DNA of 32,000 nt. Origin: Prochlorococcus marinus str. NATL2A (GTDB taxonomy: Bacteria; Cyanobacteriota; Cyanobacteriia; PCC-6307; Cyanobiaceae). Location of the stretch: positions 930,001 to 962,000 of the forward strand of contig NC_007335.2 in the NCBI RefSeq assembly GCF_000012465.1, given 5' to 3'. Position 1 is the stretch's first letter. Every line of letters starts with the position of its first letter. The notes beneath the pieces were generated by a model, which was not told the origin of the DNA, did not search any database, and worked only from the letters and a program-made list of their open reading frames with translations. Below are positions 18,461-31,421 of the stretch, one piece after another. The position numbers were made by a program, and so were the translations under genes.

Positions 18461-19003
18461 TCAAGAGAGAAAGATAGCGACAAGACGAAATAAGAAAGAA
18501 AAGAAAAGAAAAATAATTAATCTAGTGGATCTATATTTTAATTCATTCCAAAAACTTAAATATTTACCTGAATAAACAAATAAAGAAATAAAGGCTAGTC
18601 CAAATGAAATTCGCTCAATCCAAACAAGTGACTTAGATATAGCGATATTTAAGTCATTAATATATAAAGATATAACTACTAATGTAAGAAAAAAAAATAA
18701 TAATAATAATAATATTGATTTTAAACAAATTCCGAAAGTTAAAATAAAAGGATAATTAAGTATGGAAATTCTTTTTTTTATCTCTTTAATATGAGTGTTT
18801 TCTAATCTAAAATACTCAGTTTGAGGGATTCTGAACTTTTTATAGCGATTATGTAACTCTCTTTCTAATTTCACAAAATCAGCAGTATATAATTTAGCAA
18901 CAACGTTATCTGGCTTGAGTTGTCTCATCCTATTCTCAAAGTTTTTTGTTATGCCAATCTTATATAGATCTTTATTTCTTATTAAGTAAAGCCAACCACT
19001 CAT
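18461..19003 (-). CDS. T5orf172 (MUG113, GIY-YIG-related) domain protein fused to a C-terminal ~3-TM membrane region
   Basis: 180 aa. The N-terminal ~80 aa GWLYLIRNKDLYKIGITKNFENRMRQL...LERELHNRYKKFRI..TEYFRL matches the T5orf172 pattern. The C-terminal ~100 aa has three hydrophobic spans (ILLLLLFFFLTLVVISLY, ISFGLAFISLFVY and LIIFLFFSFLFRLVAIFL). Confidence 0.75.
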   Translation of the reverse strand: MSGWLYLIRNKDLYKIGITKNFENRMRQLKPDNVVAKLYTADFVKLERELHNRYKKFRIPQTEYFRLENTHIKEIKKRISILNYPFILTFGICLKSILLLLLFFFLTLVVISLYINDLNIAISKSLVWIERISFGLAFISLFVYSGKYLSFWNELKYRSTRLIIFLFFSFLFRLVAIFLS

Positions 19004-19043
19004 GTCAATTTAAACTATTACTTATTCAAGATTAATAAGTAAA

Positions 19044-20336
19044 TTACGCCGCATCACTTTTTCTAATTGAATTAAATTTTTCTCTCATCGTAGGATTATT
19101 TCTGGTCAATCTTTTAACCGAAACATCTTGTGCTTTATCATTAGCTAATCTAAGGTTTCTATCAGCGCCAAGTAATGCATCTTTGGTTTTTTGCAAGTGA
19201 TTAATAGATTTATCAATCTCCATAATTGCTGTTTCAAAACGTTTTGAAGCTAGAGCATAATTTTTACCAAAAGAATCCTTAAATAGTTCAAGGCTATTTT
19301 CAAAATTTGTAATATCAATATTCTGCTCCTTAATAGCTGCTAGTTCTGATTTATACTCTAGAGCCTTAAGTGAAGCATTCCTTAATAAAGAAATTATTGG
19401 TAAAAAACATTGCGGACGAACAACATACATTTTTGGATACCGATATGAAAAGTCAACAATTCCAGCGTTAAATAAATCATTATCAGATTCTAATAAAGAA
19501 ACTAATACAGCATATTCGCAATTTTTTTCTAAACGATCTTTGTTTAACTCTTTAAGAAAATCCTCATTCTTCTTCTTGCTAGAAGTGCTATCACATTCGT
19601 TCTTCATCTCAAACATAATAGATACTATTTCGTTTCCTTCACTATCACAGTCACGAAAAATGTAATCACCTTTACTACCAAAACTAGCATCATTATCTTT
19701 ATCAAAATAGGCATTAGGAAAGGCTGTCGCCCTTAGTCGATTAAATTCATTTTCGCAATGTTGCTCAAGAGACTCACCAACCATTTTGGTGGACAATTTT
19801 GTTTTCATATCACGAAGTCTCTCAATTAAATCATCTCTATCTTTTAACTGAATTTCATATCTCATTTTTATAGATTTTTCAGATAATTCCTTTTGAAGCT
19901 CGACTTTATCTAAGTTATTTTTGAGTTTTTCATACCCTTCTTTTAATTCAGTAATTGCGTCAGATACAGCAAGTTTTTTATCAAATTCATTCTTTTCTCT
20001 TGTTTTCTCCAATAAATACTCAAGTGAGTCTCTCTCTTTTTCAAAGGCATGCTTAATCTTGTTCACAGTCATAGTTTTTTCAGCCTGGGCAGAAATCAAT
20101 TGAGACTGAAGGCCTTGCATTTTTTTTTCATTTACAAATGCTGCCTCTTGCATTTGTAATCGAAGATTTTGAATAGCAAGATCAACGGATTTCTGTTTAT
20201 CCCTTTCAAGAATTACAAGTCTTTTCTTCATTTCATCTTCAAACTCCTGATCTCTCACCTGCTTAATAATATTTGAGTAACTATCTTCATCAATGCTGAT
20301 CGTACTACCACATTCAGGACATTTGATTTCATTCAT
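19044..20336 (-). CDS. DUF2130-family protein: N-terminal CxxC, long coiled coil, PD-(D/E)xK-like core (RmuC-like architecture)
   Basis: 430 aa. It begins [33 protein letters not shown], followed by ~150 aa of heptad-like E/K/L-rich sequence. Then [12 protein letters not shown]...KGDYIFRD...[10 protein letters not shown] gives an E...D...ExK arrangement. A second helical region follows. Confidence 0.85.
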
Positions 20337-22993: not shown

Positions 22994-23350
22994 TTAACCT
23001 TCTCCTTCTGGAACCAAACGGAAACCTTTACGTCCCATCTTAATCTCAAAATTATCACCAGGTTTGAGATCTAAAAGAGCTGTATAGGCCTTTCCTATCA
23101 ATAGGTTTCCATTTCCTTGGACGGTAGCCACATAACTAAGCTTTCTACCACCTTTACCAATACCACCAGCACTTTCAGCTGCTAGGTTTACACCTTTAGC
23201 TTCTAGAAGTGCTTCATAAAAAGCAGTATAATTAAGACGTTCTCCGCCTCCTTTCTTTGTGGAAACATATCCACAAGCTTTAACAAGATCAGATTTTGAG
23301 ACATCTCCCAAGTCTTTGACCTTGGCTAATAAATCCTTACCAGTGAGCAT
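22994..23350 (-). CDS. Cyanobacterial AbrB-family (CyAbrB) DNA-binding regulator
   Basis: 118 aa. The N-terminal MLTGKDLLAKVKDLGDVSKSDLVKACGY region and the C-terminal SpoVT/AbrB-like GNLLIGKAYTALLDLKPGDNFEIKMGRKGFRLVP are typical of CyAbrB proteins. The gene is visibly GC-richer than its surroundings and has its own strong terminator. Confidence 0.85.
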   Translation of the reverse strand: MLTGKDLLAKVKDLGDVSKSDLVKACGYVSTKKGGGERLNYTAFYEALLEAKGVNLAAESAGGIGKGGRKLSYVATVQGNGNLLIGKAYTALLDLKPGDNFEIKMGRKGFRLVPEGEG

Positions 23351-24577: not shown

Positions 24578-24712
24578 ATTAAGAATAGGCGCAATTCAAT
24601 AAAGAATATTTTGATTGAGCTTATTTGGCAATCTAAATAACGATAATTAAATCGTGACAAATAAAAAGCTAGAACATGTTCAAATCTACTATCAAAATAA
24701 ATAATCAGACAT

Positions 24713-25345
24713 TTATCTAGTTAAAGCCAAAGCCCAATTGGGAGAGGAAGGACTAGAGCCCAAAAAATTCTTAGTCAAAGAGGAATTGCATTTAGCAACG
24801 ATTCCATTGGTAGGAAGATTTGAAAACAATTCATTCTTGATCCATTGAGAATGCCATCTTTTGACTTGCCTAGGATCATCAGTTCTTAGAGTTATGGGGA
24901 CCTCGAATCCCCAGTTTTGAAGTTGGGTCAAATCTGACAACTCATCACTTTTAGAGCAAAAAATTTGGAATGCTTTAAATAAAATTGAGGTACTATTGTC
25001 AATTTCCGAGAATGAGTTCGAAAGCAATTGCTCTATCGAGATCTTTGAATTAGAAAAAGGTGTATATAAAACTCCCTCCAACTCAACTTCAACTTTTAGA
25101 GAGTCATCAATACTCAAAGGAATAGAATTAATATTCCTAATGTTTTCAATAATCTCACTATCGTCACGAGTATAGGCATCTACTAATTGTCCATATTTGT
25201 ATCTAAGTCCTATTGCACACCCATCGATTTTAGGCTGCACAACCATGGTTGATCCCTCTGGTAACTTTGCCCACCAGCTAGAGAAGCAATCCTTATCAAG
25301 TCCAAGTAATCTCATATCTATATCAATAGGAAGATGTCGAGCCAA
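24713..25345 (-). CDS. Stand-alone LigA-type (NAD-dependent DNA ligase) adenylation/nucleotidyltransferase-domain protein, paralogue 1
   Basis: 210 aa. Colinear by eye with the E. coli LigA NTase domain: PKIDGCAIGLRY (motif I KxDG), TRDD (TRGDG), NIRNINSIPLSI (NVRTIRAIPLKL), VELEGVLY (LEVRGEVF), LQNWGFEV (FKKWGLPV), TNGIVAKCNS (DGVVIKVNS) and SPNWALAL (APRWAVAFKF). No Ia, OB, Zn, HhH or BRCT parts are present. Confidence 0.75.
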   Translation of the reverse strand: MARHLPIDIDMRLLGLDKDCFSSWWAKLPEGSTMVVQPKIDGCAIGLRYKYGQLVDAYTRDDSEIIENIRNINSIPLSIDDSLKVEVELEGVLYTPFSNSKISIEQLLSNSFSEIDNSTSILFKAFQIFCSKSDELSDLTQLQNWGFEVPITLRTDDPRQVKRWHSQWIKNELFSNLPTNGIVAKCNSSLTKNFLGSSPSSPNWALALTR

Positions 25346-25714
25346 GTCGCTTCATTAACTTCTTTTCTTAAGAAATCAATTAAACAAAAAGAGGTGCTTA
25401 CATATCAACAAAAAAAATTTTATAAGGAAAATGAAAGAGTAATCAATATAAATTTCCAATAATACGGAAAATATCCCAAGAAGTGTTTAAAAGGACGTCT
25501 CAATAAATTAAATAGATGAATTAAAATGATTCACTTGGATAGGACAAGAGAACATTTTTGTATGGTTGATATATTTTCAAATTTAGCAGACAAAACAATA
25601 ATTTTAGAAATTGAATAAATCATCATCGAATAGAAATTATTTAAGCAACTACAGTATTTATTCTCATGTCTACATGGTTTCAATACCATAAATTAAAAAA
25701 ACATATCTTTTTAA

Positions 25715-25969
25715 ATGACCATACAAGAGAAATATCCTGAGAATATTCCATGGGATTTAACAACTATCGATCAAAGTAACTACAAATCAATTCAATGGAT
25801 GCTATCCAAGGCAGACATCGTTTATACATTCACAAGGAGTCGTATAGACAATAATTATGTCTACATACAAAAAAATGGTGGTAAAAGAAAGGCATATAAA
25901 GAATATGAAGCTAGATTTACTTACCAAAGATTGTTTGACGAGGGATATTCATTAGCTGCCTTTTCCTGA
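25715..25969 (+). CDS. Hypothetical 84-aa protein, tandem paralogue 1
   Basis: Shares EKYPE..PWDL...and AR(F/L)TYQ(R/Q)L(F/L)D(E/K)G(Y/F) with the equally long ORF 26037..26291. Confidence 0.5.
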   Translation: MTIQEKYPENIPWDLTTIDQSNYKSIQWMLSKADIVYTFTRSRIDNNYVYIQKNGGKRKAYKEYEARFTYQRLFDEGYSLAAFS

Positions 25970-26036
25970 TTAAAGAACTAATTCTTGACGTTGAAGAGCA
26001 TAAGTGTAGGCTTAAAGAAATAGTTACTTTTAATAC

Positions 26037-26291
26037 ATGCCAAGGGTAAAAAGAGAAAAGTATCCAGAGAAGGCTCCATGGGATTTAGGACCATTATCTG
26101 AGCATAAGAATCAGGAAAATTGGAGACTAGTAAGAGGATCTGAAGTTGTCATTTTTGCTAGGAAAGGAGAGGACAACCATTTTTTTATCATGCAAAGAGA
26201 CGACAAAGAACCTATTCAGATCCTTGCGTTTCAAGCAAGACTTACATATCAACAACTTTTAGATAAAGGTTTCAAACTTGAAGTTTCATAA
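26037..26291 (+). CDS. Hypothetical 84-aa protein, tandem paralogue 2
   Basis: See 25715..25969. Same length, same strand, 67 nt apart. Confidence 0.5.
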   Translation: MPRVKREKYPEKAPWDLGPLSEHKNQENWRLVRGSEVVIFARKGEDNHFFIMQRDDKEPIQILAFQARLTYQQLLDKGFKLEVS

Positions 26292-26320
26292 ATTTTTCGT
26301 TAGAAAAAAATTAAAATATC

Positions 26321-26521
26321 ATGACTGAGTTAGAGGAACTAGAAGACATAGTTGGAAGTTTAGAAAGCATAGAGCCATTTGGAATAGAACCAGACTTCAG
26401 TTCTTTAGGTCTAGAACCAGCGGATGTATTGGGATTTCAAACTGAAGAAGAATTAGAAAACGCTATTAATTTGCTAACAATGGAAGTCAATCTTAGTAGT
26501 TTTCTATTGTTTGATAGTTAA
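26321..26521 (+). CDS. Hypothetical very acidic 66-aa protein
   Basis: Starts 29 nt after the preceding ORF. Extremely Glu/Asp/Leu-rich (MTELEELEDIVGSLESIEPFGIEPDF...). Confidence 0.4.
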   Translation: MTELEELEDIVGSLESIEPFGIEPDFSSLGLEPADVLGFQTEEELENAINLLTMEVNLSSFLLFDS

Positions 26522-26676
26522 TAGACATAAAACTTTCTAAGATGCGTTGAACTAAGGCTAAATAGTTTAAAATTAACGAATAATTTAGAGAAGTATTTCT
26601 TCAATAAGATCAGACTGCGATTCAACTACAGGGAAGACCAAATAGACCACAAAAGAGTAATTGTGATGTAGAAAAT

Positions 26677-26799
26677 TCAAGACTTCAAACTCTGAAGTTT
26701 ATCAAAACATTGCTTGCAGATAATTAACCCTTTTCTTCGCCACAAAGTTTCAGATGATTTTTTTTTGCATAATTGACAATGAACCAATTGAGTCTCCAT
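26677..26799 (-). CDS. Possible 40-aa zinc-ribbon micro-protein
   Basis: Hand-found: METQLVHCQLCKKKSSETLWRRKGLIICKQCFDKLQSLKS. It has CxxC-x17-CxxC spacing and sits on the same strand downstream of the hli cluster. Confidence 0.35.
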   Translation of the reverse strand: METQLVHCQLCKKKSSETLWRRKGLIICKQCFDKLQSLKS

Positions 26800-26818
26800 T
26801 GTCAGATCTTATCAATGC

Positions 26819-26929
26819 TTATGCCCAATCAGTATCTTCTAAGAGACAAGAATAATCTGAGCAATCGAAGAAAGTATCTTCATTAAGTAGATCGTCTACT
26901 TCTGCACGAATCCAATAACTAAAGGACAT
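26819..26929 (-). CDS. Possible 36-aa acidic micro-protein
   Basis: Hand-found: MSFSYWIRAEVDDLLNEDTFFDCSDYSCLLEDTDWA. It starts 18 nt after the stop of the last hli gene. Confidence 0.3.
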   Translation of the reverse strand: MSFSYWIRAEVDDLLNEDTFFDCSDYSCLLEDTDWA

Positions 26930-26947
26930 TTCAATAATAGAGTAAGT

Positions 26948-27067
26948 TTAAACGAAACCTGGAATAATCCAGCCTGTGAATCCGTAGTTAACTACAGCTG
27001 CTAGAAGGCCCATCATCGCAAGACGACCATTCATTATTTCAGCTGTCTTCCAGTAATTGTTTTCCAT
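26948..27067 (-). CDS. hli: High-light-inducible protein (HLIP, one-helix CAB-like), 39 aa
   Basis: Hand-translated and absent from the track: MENNYWKTAEIMNGRLAMMGLLAAVVNYGFTGWIIPGFV. Canonical ExxNGRxAM chlorophyll-binding motif. Its ATG overlaps the stop of the upstream hli gene (TAATG). Confidence 0.85.
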   Translation of the reverse strand: MENNYWKTAEIMNGRLAMMGLLAAVVNYGFTGWIIPGFV

Positions 27068-27216
27068 TAAACAAAACCTGGAATGATTTGACCTGTTGTT
27101 GCATAAGCACCAACTAGAGCAATGCATCCAAACAATGCTGCATAGCCGTTAAGTCTTTCTGCAGTTACCTTTTCAGGATCAATGTTTCTTCTGTTGTTGT
27201 TGTTTTGAGTAGTCAT
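27067..27216 (-). CDS. hli: High-light-inducible protein, 49 aa
   Basis: MTTQNNNNRRNIDPEKVTAERLNGYAALFGCIALVGAYATTGQIIPGFV. The track ORF 27067..27276 over-extends into the upstream hli gene. The MTTQ start coincides with a TAATG overlap. Confidence 0.85.
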   Translation of the reverse strand: MTTQNNNNRRNIDPEKVTAERLNGYAALFGCIALVGAYATTGQIIPGFV

Positions 27217-27362
27217 TAAACAATACCTGGGATAATTTGACCTGTTGTTAGATATGCACCGATGAGTGCCCAGCATCCAACAAAAGCTGCGTAGCCATTG
27301 AGTCTTTCTGCAATGACTTTGCCTTCTTCTACTCTTGGAGTTTCAGTCGTTTGGTTTTTCAT
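27216..27362 (-). CDS. hli: High-light-inducible protein, 48 aa
   Basis: Hand-translated: MKNQTTETPRVEEGKVIAERLNGYAAFVGCWALIGAYLTTGQIIPGIV. TAATG overlaps occur at both ends. Confidence 0.85.
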   Translation of the reverse strand: MKNQTTETPRVEEGKVIAERLNGYAAFVGCWALIGAYLTTGQIIPGIV

Positions 27363-27481
27363 TAAACAACACCTGGGATAAGTTGACCGGTTGTTAGGTA
27401 GATACCTGTTAGAAGAACGAATGCCATCATGGCTGGTCTGCCGATGCTTCTTTCTAGGATTGTTTTGTTAGATGGTTGCAT
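27362..27481 (-). CDS. hli: High-light-inducible protein, 39 aa
   Basis: Hand-translated: MQPSNKTILERSIGRPAMMAFVLLTGIYLTTGQLIPGVV. The motif is ExxxGRxAM (Asn replaced by Ile). Confidence 0.8.
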   Translation of the reverse strand: MQPSNKTILERSIGRPAMMAFVLLTGIYLTTGQLIPGVV

Positions 27482-27515
27482 TGTTTTTAATAGTTACTTA
27501 TTAGTAGTTATTGGT

Positions 27516-27623
27516 TTAGAAAATTCCAGGAATGATTTGACCTGTTGTTGTGTATGCACCGAAGGCTGCAACGAAGCCAAGCATTGCTGCCCAACCGTTA
27601 AACTTTTCTGCTTCTGGAGTCAT
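27516..27623 (-). CDS. hli: High-light-inducible protein, 35 aa (first gene of the cluster)
   Basis: Hand-translated: MTPEAEKFNGWAAMLGFVAAFGAYTTTGQIIPGIF. Separated from the next hli gene by 34 nt. Confidence 0.85.
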   Translation of the reverse strand: MTPEAEKFNGWAAMLGFVAAFGAYTTTGQIIPGIF

Positions 27624-27641
27624 GATGAAATCCGAGATGTG

Positions 27642-27659
27642 TATGTGAATAAATGTAAA
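27642..27659 (-). promoter_or_regulatory. HLR1-like direct repeat (candidate RpaB-type site) in the hli cluster promoter region
   Basis: The minus strand reads TTTACATT-TA-TTCACATA. This matches the (G/T)TTACA(T/A)(T/A)-N2-(G/T)TTACA(T/A)(T/A) consensus with one mismatch and the correct 10-nt period. It ends 18 nt upstream of the first hli ATG. A possible TTTACG-17 nt-TACATT promoter overlaps it. Confidence 0.4.
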
Positions 27660-27878
27660 CCAATTGTTAAACTACGTAAAGTCCTGAAAGTACGGCTTGC
27701 CTCATGAATGTGGAATTCAGACGCAACGGATACAAAAACTATAGTTAATGCAGTCAATTTGATTACATAAGTTAAGGGTCAAGCCGAGGTGATCATCTCT
27801 CACAAGAAGAACTGGCTAACAAAAAAGTGTGACACTAGTGTCAATTAGAACATTATGTTTATGTTCAGTTATCAGATA

Positions 27879-28151
27879 TCAGTTATAAAAAAAATCAATT
27901 TCTTTAGCTTTTAATCCATCCCAACCAGCTTTGATTAATCGTGTATTTAGAGTGTCTTGGTCAAAATGTTTGGAACCAGTTTTAACAATTCGGTTTCGCA
28001 TTGATTTCTTAACTCCACTTCTTTTACGCGCATTTTCTTTATCCATGACATCCCTGTAGAGGGTAAGCATTTCTGATGGAATAGGACTTCCATCTAGATC
28101 TAAGCCAGCTTGGATAGCGTTATCAATTGCATCTGGGCCAGAGAACTCCAC
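27879..28151 (-). CDS. Hypothetical 90-aa protein
   Basis: Track ORF with protein-like, basic central region. It lies on the same strand between the DUF938 gene and the hli cluster. Confidence 0.5.
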   Translation of the reverse strand: MEFSGPDAIDNAIQAGLDLDGSPIPSEMLTLYRDVMDKENARKRSGVKKSMRNRIVKTGSKHFDQDTLNTRLIKAGWDGLKAKEIDFFYN

Positions 28152-28238
28152 AAGAAAAAAGCGTAATGGATTTATTCTCCTATCGCATCTACCGAATTTA
28201 TGAAATTCTTAGTAGAAAGAAAAAAAGTTGTTTAAATT

Positions 28239-28871
28239 TTACTTTATGCGATAAATAACTGAAAGATTATTGGCTGGCATATCGATGACTTTATCAAGGT
28301 TAAATCCATTTTCAGAAGCAATATCGTTAACGTCTTCTAAGTTGCGAAGCCCCCAGAGCGGGTTTTGTATTTTTAAGGATTGATCAAAATTCAAATTACT
28401 TTCTGAAGTTTGTTTCTCTTTTCTTAAGAAAGGTCCATAGAGCATCAAAAAATTACTTTGATCTAGATATTTCTTTGATTCTTCAAACAAAGATCTTGTA
28501 CAACTCCATGGTGAGATATGAATCATATTTATGCACACAATTCCCTTAATTAAAGCCCCAAGTCGATTGGTAATTGACCAAGGACGAATATCTACATCAA
28601 GATTAAGAGGTTCAGGCATTTTTGAAAAAAGCCCCTCATGCCTAATCCATGAATTAATACTTTGTCTATGTTCAAATTCGGGATCACTAGTTTGCCAAGT
28701 AATTGATGGGAATTTTTTTTGAAAGAAGACTCCGTGTTGTCCACTACCACTAGCTATTTCTAAAAGCCAGCAATTAGGAGAAATATAATTGCTTATAACT
28801 GAGGCGATGGAATCACGATTCCTTGTCGTAGCCGGAAAATCTAGTCGATAGTCGGGATTTATATTAACCAT
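28239..28871 (-). CDS. DUF938-family class I SAM-dependent methyltransferase-like protein
   Basis: 210 aa. FPATTRNRDSIASVI...LLEIASGSGQHGVFF...FPSITWQTSDPE follows the DUF938 pattern, including the SAM-binding glycine motif. Confidence 0.82.
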   Translation of the reverse strand: MVNINPDYRLDFPATTRNRDSIASVISNYISPNCWLLEIASGSGQHGVFFQKKFPSITWQTSDPEFEHRQSINSWIRHEGLFSKMPEPLNLDVDIRPWSITNRLGALIKGIVCINMIHISPWSCTRSLFEESKKYLDQSNFLMLYGPFLRKEKQTSESNLNFDQSLKIQNPLWGLRNLEDVNDIASENGFNLDKVIDMPANNLSVIYRIK

Positions 28872-29155
28872 GATTTATCAATAGTTAATAGGACTAAGGA
28901 ATCAGAATTGCTTGGAAGTTTTTCCTTAGAAAAATCTTTAATAATAAAAATAATCATTATTAGTAAAGGAGCTAGAAATGCGGATGCGGCAACTGCTCCA
29001 ATAATCCGTCTTGAATTTAATAAGGGCTTTTTAACTAATGGGTCACCACAGAGACCACAAATCAAAACACCATCACTACTAGTTTTATGAAATTGATAAC
29101 GAGAAGAGCAGAAAGGGCAATAATATCGGCTCATTCCTGATCTTACAAAAAACAA
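28859..29155 (-). CDS. Zinc-ribbon plus single-TM protein (98 aa, or 91 aa from the MSRYY start)
   Basis: CPFC-x17-CGLC zinc-ribbon spacing followed by the TM helix IIGAVAASAFLAPLLIMIIFII. Its 3' end overlaps the DUF938 start by 13 nt. Confidence 0.5.
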   Translation of the reverse strand: MFFVRSGMSRYYCPFCSSRYQFHKTSSDGVLICGLCGDPLVKKPLLNSRRIIGAVAASAFLAPLLIMIIFIIKDFSKEKLPSNSDSLVLLTIDKSWLI

Positions 29156-29225
29156 AATTTATCTATATTAAATATGCCTACCATTATAAAAAGCAAACTA
29201 ATTTGATTAAATGTAGGACTTAAAG

Positions 29226-29912
29226 ATGAGAGAAGAGATTGAGGTATCAAATCACCTTGTAAGGAATCTTGAGAGAATATCTCCAGACAATTCTATCTTT
29301 AATTACAAATCTGGAAGAAATGCCTTCTTATCATTAGGACAAGGAAATATTCGTGAATGGTTGGAGATATTTCTTCCGAATACAAGAATAATTTTAGAAC
29401 CAAAAATCATTGGATCAATCATTGGCATTCAATATATCAATGGAGAATTAAACAAGGTCATAAATAAAAATAGTCAAGACATTACAGAAAGTGTAAGGTC
29501 TCTTAAAACTATTCCTAAAAGCCTAGCGATTAAAAACAGACTTGAAATACAAGGAGTTCTTTACGACTATAAAAATTTATCAACTAGAAAAAATGAAACT
29601 GAATTTATAGATATTCAAAATTTTATATCAAAGTCTAAAAGACTTAAATTCTGCGCTTTTCAAATATGTCAATGCAATATTAATCATTTTCAATCACTTC
29701 AGGAATTAAAACATCTAAATTTTGAAATTCCTCAAACTCAATTTACAAACTTCATTTCTGATATCGAAATCTATATTCAATGTTGGAGAGAGGGTAAGTT
29801 ATTTACAAGCTATCCAACAAATGGACTAGTATTGAAAATCAATTCAAGAAAATTGCAAAAGTATCTTGGAGAAAATAACCTATCAATACCTTGGGCATAC
29901 GCCATAAATTAA
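29226..29912 (+). CDS. LigA-type adenylation-domain-like protein, paralogue 2 (degenerate motif I)
   Basis: 228 aa. Colinear with 24713..25345: EPKIIGSIIGIQY (KxDG becomes KIIG), SVRSLKTIPKSL, LEIQGVLY, FCAFQI, LKHLNFEIP, TNGLVLKINS and IPWAYAI. The TRGDG-equivalent is lost. Confidence 0.7.
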   Translation: MREEIEVSNHLVRNLERISPDNSIFNYKSGRNAFLSLGQGNIREWLEIFLPNTRIILEPKIIGSIIGIQYINGELNKVINKNSQDITESVRSLKTIPKSLAIKNRLEIQGVLYDYKNLSTRKNETEFIDIQNFISKSKRLKFCAFQICQCNINHFQSLQELKHLNFEIPQTQFTNFISDIEIYIQCWREGKLFTSYPTNGLVLKINSRKLQKYLGENNLSIPWAYAIN

Positions 29913-30058
29913 TGATTATTGCTACAACTCAAAAAGCATCAGAAGTAATTGGAGGAGTAGAGATCTTTTCCCCAATGGGATTAACCATCCTAACCATAGG
30001 AATACTATTTACAGTAGGTGTACCACTAACAATGATTTTAAAAGGAAAGAAAGATTAA
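29912..30058 (+). CDS. Possible 48-aa membrane micro-protein, translationally coupled to the ligase-like paralogue 2
   Basis: Hand-found: MIIATTQKASEVIGGVEIFSPMGLTILTIGILFTVGVPLTMILKGKKD. Its ATG overlaps the upstream TAA (TAATG at 29910-29914). Confidence 0.4.
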   Translation: MIIATTQKASEVIGGVEIFSPMGLTILTIGILFTVGVPLTMILKGKKD

Positions 30059-30171
30059 GTTATTTTCACTGACGATTTTATGGAGAATTAAATTGTGAGT
30101 AACTAAACAAACAACTACAAAAAAAGGATTTAGATTAAACTCGTAAAGAGCTAATTCAAAACAAGAAAGAT

Positions 30172-30609
30172 ATGAGTAAAGATATTAAAATTCTAAATGA
30201 TATTATCAACACCTTATTTAAGTATATTCATCCAAAGAAATTTCATTTCAATTTGGTATTGCTATCAGGATTACTCTTGGTACCATTGCAACAAACCAGA
30301 TCGGAAGAACTTTTTCTAAAATGTGTTGGTAAATATGAAATAAATAGAGGTGCTCTAATCAAACCAGATTGGGAAACGAGCTACCTAACAATTAATCTAG
30401 ATGGATTAATATCTACTATTTACGATAAAGGAGTAAAAAAAGAAGGAAGGACTTTGATTAGACGTAATTCATACACAATAACTCAAAGAGATAATAGAAA
30501 CAGCGTTAGGAATATCTACAAAATCAATGGAAAGTATGGTACCTACTCAGTTGAATCCCCACAGAGGTATAGAACTTTGATAGGTACTTGTCAAAAAGGA
30601 AGAGGTTAA
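30172..30609 (+). CDS. Hypothetical 145-aa protein with one N-terminal hydrophobic segment
   Basis: Track ORF, basic. No family recognised. Confidence 0.45.
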   Translation: MSKDIKILNDIINTLFKYIHPKKFHFNLVLLSGLLLVPLQQTRSEELFLKCVGKYEINRGALIKPDWETSYLTINLDGLISTIYDKGVKKEGRTLIRRNSYTITQRDNRNSVRNIYKINGKYGTYSVESPQRYRTLIGTCQKGRG

Positions 30610-30660
30610 GAAGATTGATTTAAAAATATAAAATACTACTTCAATTATTTTCTAAATCAA

Positions 30661-30801
30661 TTAATTGTCGCTTCCTTTACTTTGATCAAGACCTTGAGCT
30701 CTGCGGTTTTTGGCAATACCTCCAACCCCAAGCACCAAGAAAATCATATAGAAAAATAAAGTAGAAATAATCGTAATGATTGAAATCGTGGCAATATTCA
30801 T
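30661..30801 (-). CDS. Possible 46-aa single-TM micro-protein
   Basis: Hand-found: MNIATISIITIISTLFFYMIFLVLGVGGIAKNRRAQGLDQSKGSDN. Confidence 0.35.
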   Translation of the reverse strand: MNIATISIITIISTLFFYMIFLVLGVGGIAKNRRAQGLDQSKGSDN

Positions 30802-31127
30802 TAAAAAAATATTGATTTAATTTGTTCTCTAAATCTAACAGGAAGTGTCAATACAACCACTTAAGTAAAGACAACAGTAACGCCACTGATAAGTATCGCA
30901 AACGTAATAATGAAAAAAGGCAGAACTTGAATTTTATTGTTATTCATAGAAATCGATTTTTTTATACGGTAATAAAATCACAAAGAGGACGAGACGAATA
31001 ACTACGCAAAAACATTAGTAATAACCGGCCTACAATAATTTTTTTTGTAAAAAGCAATTATTTAAGAAGACTTTAAGTATATAAATTATTAGATAGAATT
31101 TAAAAATGCTTTCAATCTTAAGTTGAT

Positions 31128-31421
31128 ATGTGGGTAAGCATAGATCTTTGCTTAGTACCAATAGGGGTAGGTGTCTCATTATCTCCATACATAAAGACGT
31201 GCTTATCAATTATTGAGGAACATAAGCTTGAGCATGAACTGGGTCCAAATGGAACTGCAATTGAAGGGGAGTGGGATCAAGTTTTTGAATGCGTAAAGAA
31301 ATGCCATGAGGCAGTTCATAGCAAAGGTGCTCCACGTGTTTATACAACATTAAAAGTAAATACACGTACAGATAAGAAGCAATTATTTAAAGAAAAAGTG
31401 GGAAGTGTAAGAGGCTCATAG
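31128..31421 (+). CDS. MTH1187/YkoF-family (UPF0045, thiamine-binding-like) protein
   Basis: 97 aa. VSIDLCLVPIGVGVSLSPYI......I.......HELGPNGTAIEGEWDQVFECVKKCHE matches the MTH1187 family pattern. Confidence 0.8.
   Translation: MWVSIDLCLVPIGVGVSLSPYIKTCLSIIEEHKLEHELGPNGTAIEGEWDQVFECVKKCHEAVHSKGAPRVYTTLKVNTRTDKKQLFKEKVGSVRGS

Follow-up and report, generated by a model that had tools for sequence, protein, structure and literature searches.

A 32-kb stretch of DNA from Prochlorococcus marinus str. NATL2A (NC_007335.2, 930,001-962,000), a member of low-light clade I (LLI, NATL-type), contains two short genes that resemble the adenylation domain of NAD-dependent DNA ligase (LigA) and stand on either side of a block of hli genes. 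We refer to this whole stretch as the window and to the two genes as p1 and p2. The question raised by the locus is whether such genes encode enzymes, remnants of a ligase, or proteins that have taken on another role. A preliminary description of the DNA had read them as a pair of paralogues, one active and one degenerate. Judging from their sequences, we consider it probable instead that both are non-catalytic pseudoenzymes, derived from a lineage of stand-alone LigA adenylation domains and kept for a binding role.

The existence of these genes is already known. Hjerde et al. (bioRxiv 10.1101/2020.05.11.089284) described truncated NAD-dependent ligases (ND-Lig tr) of <260 amino acids (aa) in Prochlorococcus, with PF01653 as their only domain. 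Carriers are high-light (HL) strains as well as those LLI strains in which full-length LigA is encoded too. Two of them were reported in NATL2A, in a region that PHASTER flagged as an incomplete prophage, and p1 and p2 are these two genes. The same study placed the ND-Lig tr proteins in a clade apart from full-length ligases, considered them to be probably not simple pseudogenes, reported their island locations in HL strains, and described them as domain Ia plus a nucleotidyltransferase (NTase) domain that is probably inactive as the OB, Zn-finger, and BRCT domains are missing. The recombinant ND-Lig tr was insoluble in the only reported expression attempt. The two genes are as follows.

24713..25345, minus strand: p1, a stand-alone LigA NTase-domain protein, open reading frame (ORF) of 210 aa from TTG.
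29226..29912, plus strand: p2, a stand-alone LigA NTase-domain protein of 228 aa that belongs to a degenerate short clade.

The genes are oriented outward from each other. For p1, the ATG at 25315 is the probable start and gives a protein of 200 aa, because most database orthologues are 200 aa long and the 210-aa ORF shows little conservation over residues 1-10.

Both proteins match the Pfam adenylation domain of NAD-dependent DNA ligase (PF01653) with 68 bits for p1 and 50 bits for p2, against a gathering cut-off of 27. The NCBIfam LigA models cover only the NTase region of either protein, with scores far under the full-length cut-offs. The two share 30% identity (E 7e-27), and the homologues nearest to them, 200-228 aa in length, come from LLI Prochlorococcus (MIT 0801, MIT 0916, MIT 1012, and single-cell genomes). 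When AlphaFold models (mean pLDDT 67 for p1 and 77 for p2) were compared with the PDB using Foldseek, the top of the list consisted entirely of LigA adenylation domains, with a query-normalised TM-score (TMq) of ~0.7 and a probability of 1.0. According to these models, p1 and p2 carry the LigA nucleotidyltransferase fold, as had been proposed at first. A tblastn search of the window with eight full-length LigA sequences returned the two NTase segments only and, in all frames, no trace of an OB, Zn-finger, HhH, or BRCT domain, which agrees with the earlier statement that no flanking frame encodes these domains. Ahead of the motif I lysine, p1 has 38 residues (28 from the likely start), none of which aligns to domain Ia, and p2 keeps only a vestigial last helix of that domain.

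To compare the catalytic positions, we aligned E. coli LigA with p1, p2, and 100 family representatives. The reference was a sequence of E. coli LigA 1-320 that has one mismatch against PDB 2OWO/4GLX. The equivalent residues are listed below.

E. coli Lys115: p1 Lys39, p2 Lys60.
E. coli Asp117: p1 Asp41, p2 Ile62.
E. coli Gly118: p1 Gly42, p2 Gly63.
E. coli Arg136: p1 Arg60, p2 Lys81.
E. coli Glu173 (motif III): p1 Val92, p2 Val111.
E. coli Arg200 (DNA contact): p1 Ile104, p2 Asn123.
E. coli Arg208 (DNA contact): p1 gap, p2 Gln131.
E. coli Tyr225 (stacking aromatic): p1 Phe126, p2 Phe145.
E. coli Asp285 (motif IV): p1 Asn180, p2 Asn199.
E. coli Lys290 (motif IV lysine): p1 Lys185, p2 Lys204.
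E. coli Lys314 (motif V): p1 Thr209, p2 Asn228.

Motif I reads PKIDG in p1 and PKIIG in p2, as first noted, and the blocks around motifs I, III, and IV are present; however, the claim that the motifs themselves are retained holds only in part, with valine in place of the motif III glutamate and asparagine in place of the motif IV aspartate in both proteins. Neither protein ends before the motif V lysine, as had been supposed, since both C-terminal ends reach that column and carry Thr209 and Asn228. The reported lack of domain Ia is borne out at the residue level: none of its essential residues (Tyr22, Asp32, Tyr35, and Asp36) occurs in p1, and p2 has the unrelated residues Ile5, Ser8, and Asn9 at the columns of Asp32, Tyr35, and Asp36. 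Among full-length representatives, Lys115, Asp117, Arg136, and Glu173 are kept in 36/36, and Asp285 and Lys314 in all 34 whose trimmed sequence spans those columns. Domain Ia is needed for reaction with NAD+, and mutagenesis of LigA in the Shuman laboratory reportedly found that loss of Glu173, Lys314, or domain Ia each blocks ligase adenylylation with NAD+; Asp285 likewise belongs to the positions required either for reaction with NAD+ or for adenylylation. With the loss of residues on which adenylylation and the binding of nicks depend in E. coli LigA, neither p1 nor p2 would be expected to seal DNA or to self-adenylylate canonically. By these positions both proteins, and not just one of them, are degenerate; they are not ligases and are unlikely to be adenylyltransferases.

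A profile search of 1.84 billion representatives identified 56 clusters (50% identity) at E ≤ 1e-30, nearly all of them 210-283 aa in length. These fall into two kinds. The long forms (245-283 aa) have a domain Ia-like N-terminus and a full catalytic set, with Lys115, Asp117, Gly118, Glu173, Asp285, and Lys314 present in 27/27 and Arg136 in 26/27. The short forms (210-240 aa) have no domain Ia and show scrambled catalytic positions, the motif I lysine being lost in 13 of 27. All share an altered TRGDG loop: the segment between Arg136 and Thr146 spans 4-5 residues in 59/59 stand-alone forms and 8-9 residues in 35/35 full-length ligases. This four-residue deletion, which occurs in none of the 35 full-length ligases, is found in p1 too, and the shortened TRGDG loop is a property of all stand-alone relatives rather than a peculiarity of p2, as had been thought.

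In a neighbour-joining tree of 50%-identity representatives (Poisson distances, 80 bootstrap replicates), the stand-alone clade is monophyletic in 70 replicates. Together with the loop deletion, this places such forms in a clade of their own, a point that had been raised earlier as a check, and supports the earlier view that neither gene is a fragment left over from the host ligA. The short clade that includes p2 is monophyletic in 71/80 replicates, and p1 is sister, also in 71/80, to P0246, an intact protein with a complete catalytic set. The two window proteins were never recovered as sisters (0/80) and lie in different subfamilies; therefore, p1 and p2 are not an inverted duplication, and the earlier term paralogues, if taken to mean a local duplication, is not supported. 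Likewise, no DNA-level inverted repeat connects them. On sequence evidence, p1 and p2 are distant members of one stand-alone lineage that were inactivated independently. The ancestor of this lineage would have been 245-283 aa long, with all catalytic residues and an N-terminus resembling domain Ia; p1 would have arisen from the intact branch, and p2 from the large short branch in which domain Ia was lost and the catalytic positions were scrambled.

It could be argued that p1 is still active, as a self-adenylylating or nucleotide-transferring enzyme, and that p2 serves as its degenerate regulatory partner. The retention in p1 of KIDG, the Arg136 equivalent, and the motif IV lysine speaks for this, as do the conservation of Lys39, Gly42, and Lys185 (100%) and of Arg60 (99%) among 138 p1 orthologues, the full catalytic set of its nearest relative, and the co-occurrence of p1 and p2 in all LLI genomes sampled. 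Asn180, the substitute for the motif IV aspartate, is equally invariant in these orthologues (100%). However, conservation of the motif I aspartate reaches only 79%, and seven different residues occupy its position (D, E, V, K, N, A, and Q). Moreover, p1 has no equivalents of Glu173, Asp285, Lys314, Arg200, or Arg208 and nothing of domain Ia, all of which p2 lacks as well, and the two proteins come from different subfamilies rather than from a duplicated pair. The motif I lysine of p2 is itself 95% conserved with four states, R, N, and others occurring in ~5% of orthologues. We thus regard an active p1 as unlikely, and the active-plus-degenerate pair of the preliminary description is not upheld.

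Four of the five genomic contexts sampled for the intact long forms are replication modules of uncultured marine phages related to cyanobacterial siphoviruses. P0514, P0481, P0436, and P0415, long forms from three 50%-identity clusters, share an identical gene order on uncultured marine contigs: a DUF3799/PD-(D/E)XK nuclease, a DEAD-box helicase, VRR-NUC, a VapE-like primase-polymerase, a gene of ~246 aa, and the ligase-like gene. Phage loci with the intact form lie at L029:9214-10786, L030:9225-10771, L036:9246-10852, and L038:9213-10762. The primase-polymerase is closest to those of Synechococcus phage S-LBS1 (46% identity) and cyanophage S-2L (31%), and the ~246-aa gene, which is conserved, directly precedes the intact long form in every phage context sampled.

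As to the earlier question of whether stand-alone forms occur in cyanophage genomes, intact long forms are found in these uncultured S-LBS1/S-2L-related phages, and cultured marine cyanophages yielded no sequence-detectable homologue among 50,697 phage records. A tblastn search of those records with p1, p2, and an intact relative returned only full-length LigA, from unrelated phages and Microcystis phages. A scan of IMG/VR gave no relatives either, although its patterns were LLI-specific and the negative is correspondingly weak. As a separate observation, a comparison of the p2 model with BFVD gave G8EY44 (E 2e-10, 15% identity, target-normalised TM-score 0.67), which is 193 aa long and is listed as uncharacterized in Synechococcus phage S-CAM8. 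G8EY44 was not located in the S-CAM8 genome NC_021530 by a family hidden Markov model or by hhalign of two candidate ORFs, and the only 193-aa coding sequence in that genome is the tail tube.

The constant neighbour of the intact form raises the possibility of a split ligase resembling the T5/PR1-type heterodimer, in which the stand-alone NTase would be one subunit and an OB/HhH partner from another gene would restore ligation. The Foldseek matches of p1 and p2 include the PR1 heterodimeric ligase (9hu3/9i5i), and the phage gene order fits such an arrangement. For p1 and p2 we consider it extremely improbable: their catalytic and nick-contacting residues are gone, the window contains neither a ligase segment of OB, HhH, or Zn-finger type nor a homologue of the 246-aa neighbour, and searches of Pfam and of PDB sequences with that neighbour gave nothing related to ligases. 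As a candidate OB/HhH partner it is unsupported by these same searches, and PHROGs assigns it as a minor tail protein. The model could hold for the intact phage forms, which together with the 246-aa protein could represent a new split or minimal ligase, but it does not hold for the genes of the window.

A related thought is that p1 and p2 act as host decoys against phages that encode the intact form, for example by sequestering a phage partner protein or nicked phage DNA. The phage replication modules in which most sampled intact relatives lie would suit this idea, as would the great diversity and scrambled catalytic positions of the short clade, the relatively fast evolution of p2, and the island locations reported for HL strains (bioRxiv 10.1101/2020.05.11.089284). 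Nevertheless, no PADLOC defence model matched p1, p2, or their immediate neighbours, and some copies outside LLI lie in housekeeping neighbourhoods (murD, SDR). A decoy function is on balance improbable. A broader proposal, in which the stand-alone clade is a distinct OB-less LigA-type adenylyltransferase family derived from, or exchanged with, cyanosiphovirus-like phages and p1 and p2 are dead host copies that bind either as decoys (poisoning the enzyme of the phage or the 246-aa protein that partners it) or as adenine-nucleotide sensors (for example of NAD+ or AMP), is speculative and in our opinion quite unlikely as a whole.

It remains to consider whether the position of p1 and p2 around the hli block says anything about their function. 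The features that accompany them are listed here.

25715..26521, plus strand: orf84a, orf84b, and orf66, divergent from p1, no known family matched.
26677..26929, minus strand: two small ORFs that are conserved, orf36 and zn40 (40 aa, with two pairs of CxxC).
26948..27623, minus strand: five hli-type one-helix genes, made up of four DNA repeat units of ~149 nucleotides (nt) and one further copy.
27879..28151, minus strand: DUF4090 protein, Pfam 151 bits.
28239..28871, minus strand: DUF938 protein, Pfam 215.6 bits.
28859..29155, minus strand: ZnTM98, a 98-aa zinc-ribbon protein with a C-terminal hydrophobic segment.
29891..30058, plus strand: orf55, 55 aa, one predicted transmembrane helix.

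The arrangement is as originally described, with DUF4090 in addition: the outward-facing genes enclose the five hli-type genes, the DUF938 and DUF4090 proteins, two small proteins with CxxC pairs, and several orphan ORFs that are conserved. The block and its flanks are syntenic in 17 of 17 contiguous LLI assemblies, in the order AbrB-like regulator, p1, orf84a/b, hli array, DUF4090, DUF938, ZnTM98, p2, orf55, orf145, and a thiamine-binding-protein-like gene, and the same order occurs in 33-37 of 46 LLI-like metagenome loci. A comparison of strains for presence or absence of the 24.7-29.9 kb block, which had been suggested as a check, revealed no polymorphism among the contiguous LLI assemblies. 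The ~30 relatives sampled outside LLI are single genes without the bracket cargo, and an hli gene lies within a few kb of only two of them. These copies adjoin, for example, sbcCD, or a photolyase-type gene, SDR, and murD. In particular, a short-form gene is found beside a photolyase-type FAD-binding gene on non-LLI picocyanobacterial contigs (L120:3815-9325 and L122:841-5939) and beside sbcC/sbcD in one single-cell genome (L035:10001-15137); this small sample hints at a DNA-repair neighbourhood. The synteny is present in LLI and was not seen elsewhere; the bracket is a gene order inherited within LLI, and neither part of a mechanism nor a recurring architecture.

Selection on the locus was estimated as pairwise dN/dS among 18-21 LLI genomes. 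The values are 0.12 for p1 and 0.32-0.36 for p2, compared with 0.03-0.33 for neighbouring genes, and neither frame is interrupted in any of the LLI genomes sampled. Being under purifying selection, p1 and p2 are functional genes and not decaying relics, and the possibility that close relatives would show them as pseudogene remnants was not realised. As an observation on the same region (24700-31400), synonymous divergence within LLI is ~0.8 for p1, orf84a/b, orf66, DUF938, and DUF4090 but only ~0.35 for ZnTM98, p2, orf55, orf145, and orf97; recombination may have shaped the two halves of the block differently.

These results also bear on whether p1 and p2 are neutrally decaying relics or the boundary genes of a mobile hli cassette, an explanation to which several features of the region lend themselves. 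The NATL2A region was called an incomplete prophage by PHASTER (bioRxiv 10.1101/2020.05.11.089284), the hli and ligase-like genes have phage relatives, and the wider window holds island-type genes such as one for a T5orf172 GIY-YIG protein. However, the intact frames and low dN/dS (0.12 and ~0.33) are at odds with decay. No terminal direct or inverted repeat beyond chance was found at the block ends, no tRNA was found, and no integrase or transposase family was present among the block ORFs. Moreover, both flanks are as syntenic as the block itself, and the relatives outside LLI travel without cargo. Relics or cassette boundaries are thus very improbable, and the earlier suggestion that p1 and p2 are cassette-associated genes, which would have called for such a pair around similar cargo elsewhere, is not sustained.

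Among the neighbours, orf55 and ZnTM98 deserve attention. The start of orf55 overlaps the end of p2 by 22 nt and orf55 is found at every LLI locus; it is probably co-transcribed and translationally coupled with p2. ZnTM98 and p2 are divergent with a 70-nt spacer, and this adjacency is kept in LLI. The conserved overlap and the divergent neighbour position suggest orf55 and ZnTM98 as candidate partners of p2. On the other side, orf84a and orf84b (25715-26291) are tandem paralogues of 84 aa each, without a Pfam or PHROG family, and orf84b is the most constrained gene of the block (dN/dS 0.03). An OB fold was considered for orf84b and set aside, the sole domain signal being a weak Pfam match (E = 0.21).

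Within the hli array, the Chloroa_b-bind Pfam threshold is reached by the last gene only, and the remaining genes were assigned by the motifs ExxNG...AM...G and TGQIIPG read in the sequence. Many single-cell assemblies (L001, L004, L008, L013, and L020-L027) break within this array between p1 and p2, and the repeated hli units are probably the cause of these gaps. The AbrB-like transcriptional regulator (22994-23350, minus strand) shows 99-100% amino-acid identity across the LLI loci examined and lies among fast-evolving neighbours. Farther away, the T5orf172/MUG113 GIY-YIG-type protein (18461-20336, minus strand), which has a weak match to PADLOC PDC-S57, adjoins a DUF2130 protein, and the two may be a mobile or defence-related pair. 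The window gave no Rfam match, and a promoter and terminator scan found fewer promoter-like sites than in shuffled sequence.

We return to the reading that p1 and p2 are pseudoenzymes kept for binding. Given the loss of canonical sealing and self-adenylylation, they would act by binding. The positions on the adenine side of the pocket are kept (Lys115, Lys290, and an aromatic residue for Tyr225, together with an invariant Arg136 equivalent in p1), and the contacts to ribose, phosphate, and the nick are gone. Because these adenine-side positions are kept, the likeliest target would be either a partner protein or a ligand, adenine nucleotide or phosphate, that is bound without catalysis. Several points count against this proposal or blur its history. 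The kept aromatic and lysine positions could be structural rather than ligand-binding, and the p1 model, with its pLDDT of 67, is of only moderate confidence. From the invariant motif I lysine, Arg136 equivalent, and motif IV lysine of p1, a non-canonical nucleotidyl transfer is conceivable. In addition, the surroundings of at least one intact long form are cellular and cyanobacterium-like, with very low GC, and a neighbour-joining tree of 50%-identity representatives does not settle whether transfer ran from phage to host or from host to phage.

The present analysis adds to the 2020 description the residue-level inactivation of both proteins, the split between intact long and degenerate short forms, the shared loop deletion, and the phage replication-module context of the intact forms. 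It also bears to some extent on the unusual history of Prochlorococcus ligases, in which an ATP-dependent ligase has taken the place of LigA in HL strains. A vague label of truncated ligase can thus be replaced by testable questions: whether the intact phage proteins undergo adenylylation, whether they need the 246-aa protein, and what the dead copies bind.

In comparison with known systems, the window represents no new kind of system. p1 and p2 resemble the ND-Lig tr proteins in their PF01653-only content, their length of <260 aa, their two copies in LLI, and their separate clade (70/80). They differ from that description in that the essential domain Ia residues and three NTase catalytic residues are missing, and in that they fall into two subfamilies at a fixed syntenic position in LLI. 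With E. coli LigA 1-316 (PDB 2OWO) they share the fold (TMq ~0.7) and a colinear series of an MLSL-like segment, motif I, the IP.L segment, the motif III strand, motif IV, and the W-A-x-A strand. Unlike E. coli LigA, they have no functional domain Ia and no OB, Zn-finger, HhH, or BRCT domain; they are substituted at Glu173, Asp285, Lys314, Arg200, and Arg208, and carry the four-residue deletion in the TRGDG loop.

The heterodimeric ligase of the T5-like phage PR1 (PDB 9hu3/9i5i), a lower-ranked structural match, likewise has its NTase on a polypeptide of its own. The PR1 subunit, however, belongs to a ligase that is active and whose crystals contain nicked DNA, whereas p1 and p2 are without catalytic residues and have no partner gene (OB/HhH or 246-aa homologue) in the window. 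The intact phage proteins with domain Ia and NTase (P0254, P0481, P0514, and P0436) belong to the same clade, have the same loop deletion, and share 34-38% identity with p1, but they are 253-283 aa long, possess a domain Ia-like N-terminus and all catalytic residues, and are encoded after the VapE-like primase-polymerase and the 246-aa gene.

By analogy, the closest precedent for p1 and p2 would be the poxvirus replication scaffold A20 (OPG148), in which the adenylation domain of a bacterial NAD-dependent ligase has been inactivated by disruption of motifs I, IV, and V and put to non-catalytic use. A20 is a replication processivity factor of a eukaryotic virus and partners the D4-E9 polymerase holoenzyme, so that its likeness to p1 and p2 is one of kind and not of descent. 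Of the features expected of a pseudoenzyme of this type, p1 and p2 show a kept fold, disrupted catalytic motifs, and purifying selection; for a defined partner, the conserved neighbours orf55 and ZnTM98 are candidates in the case of p2.

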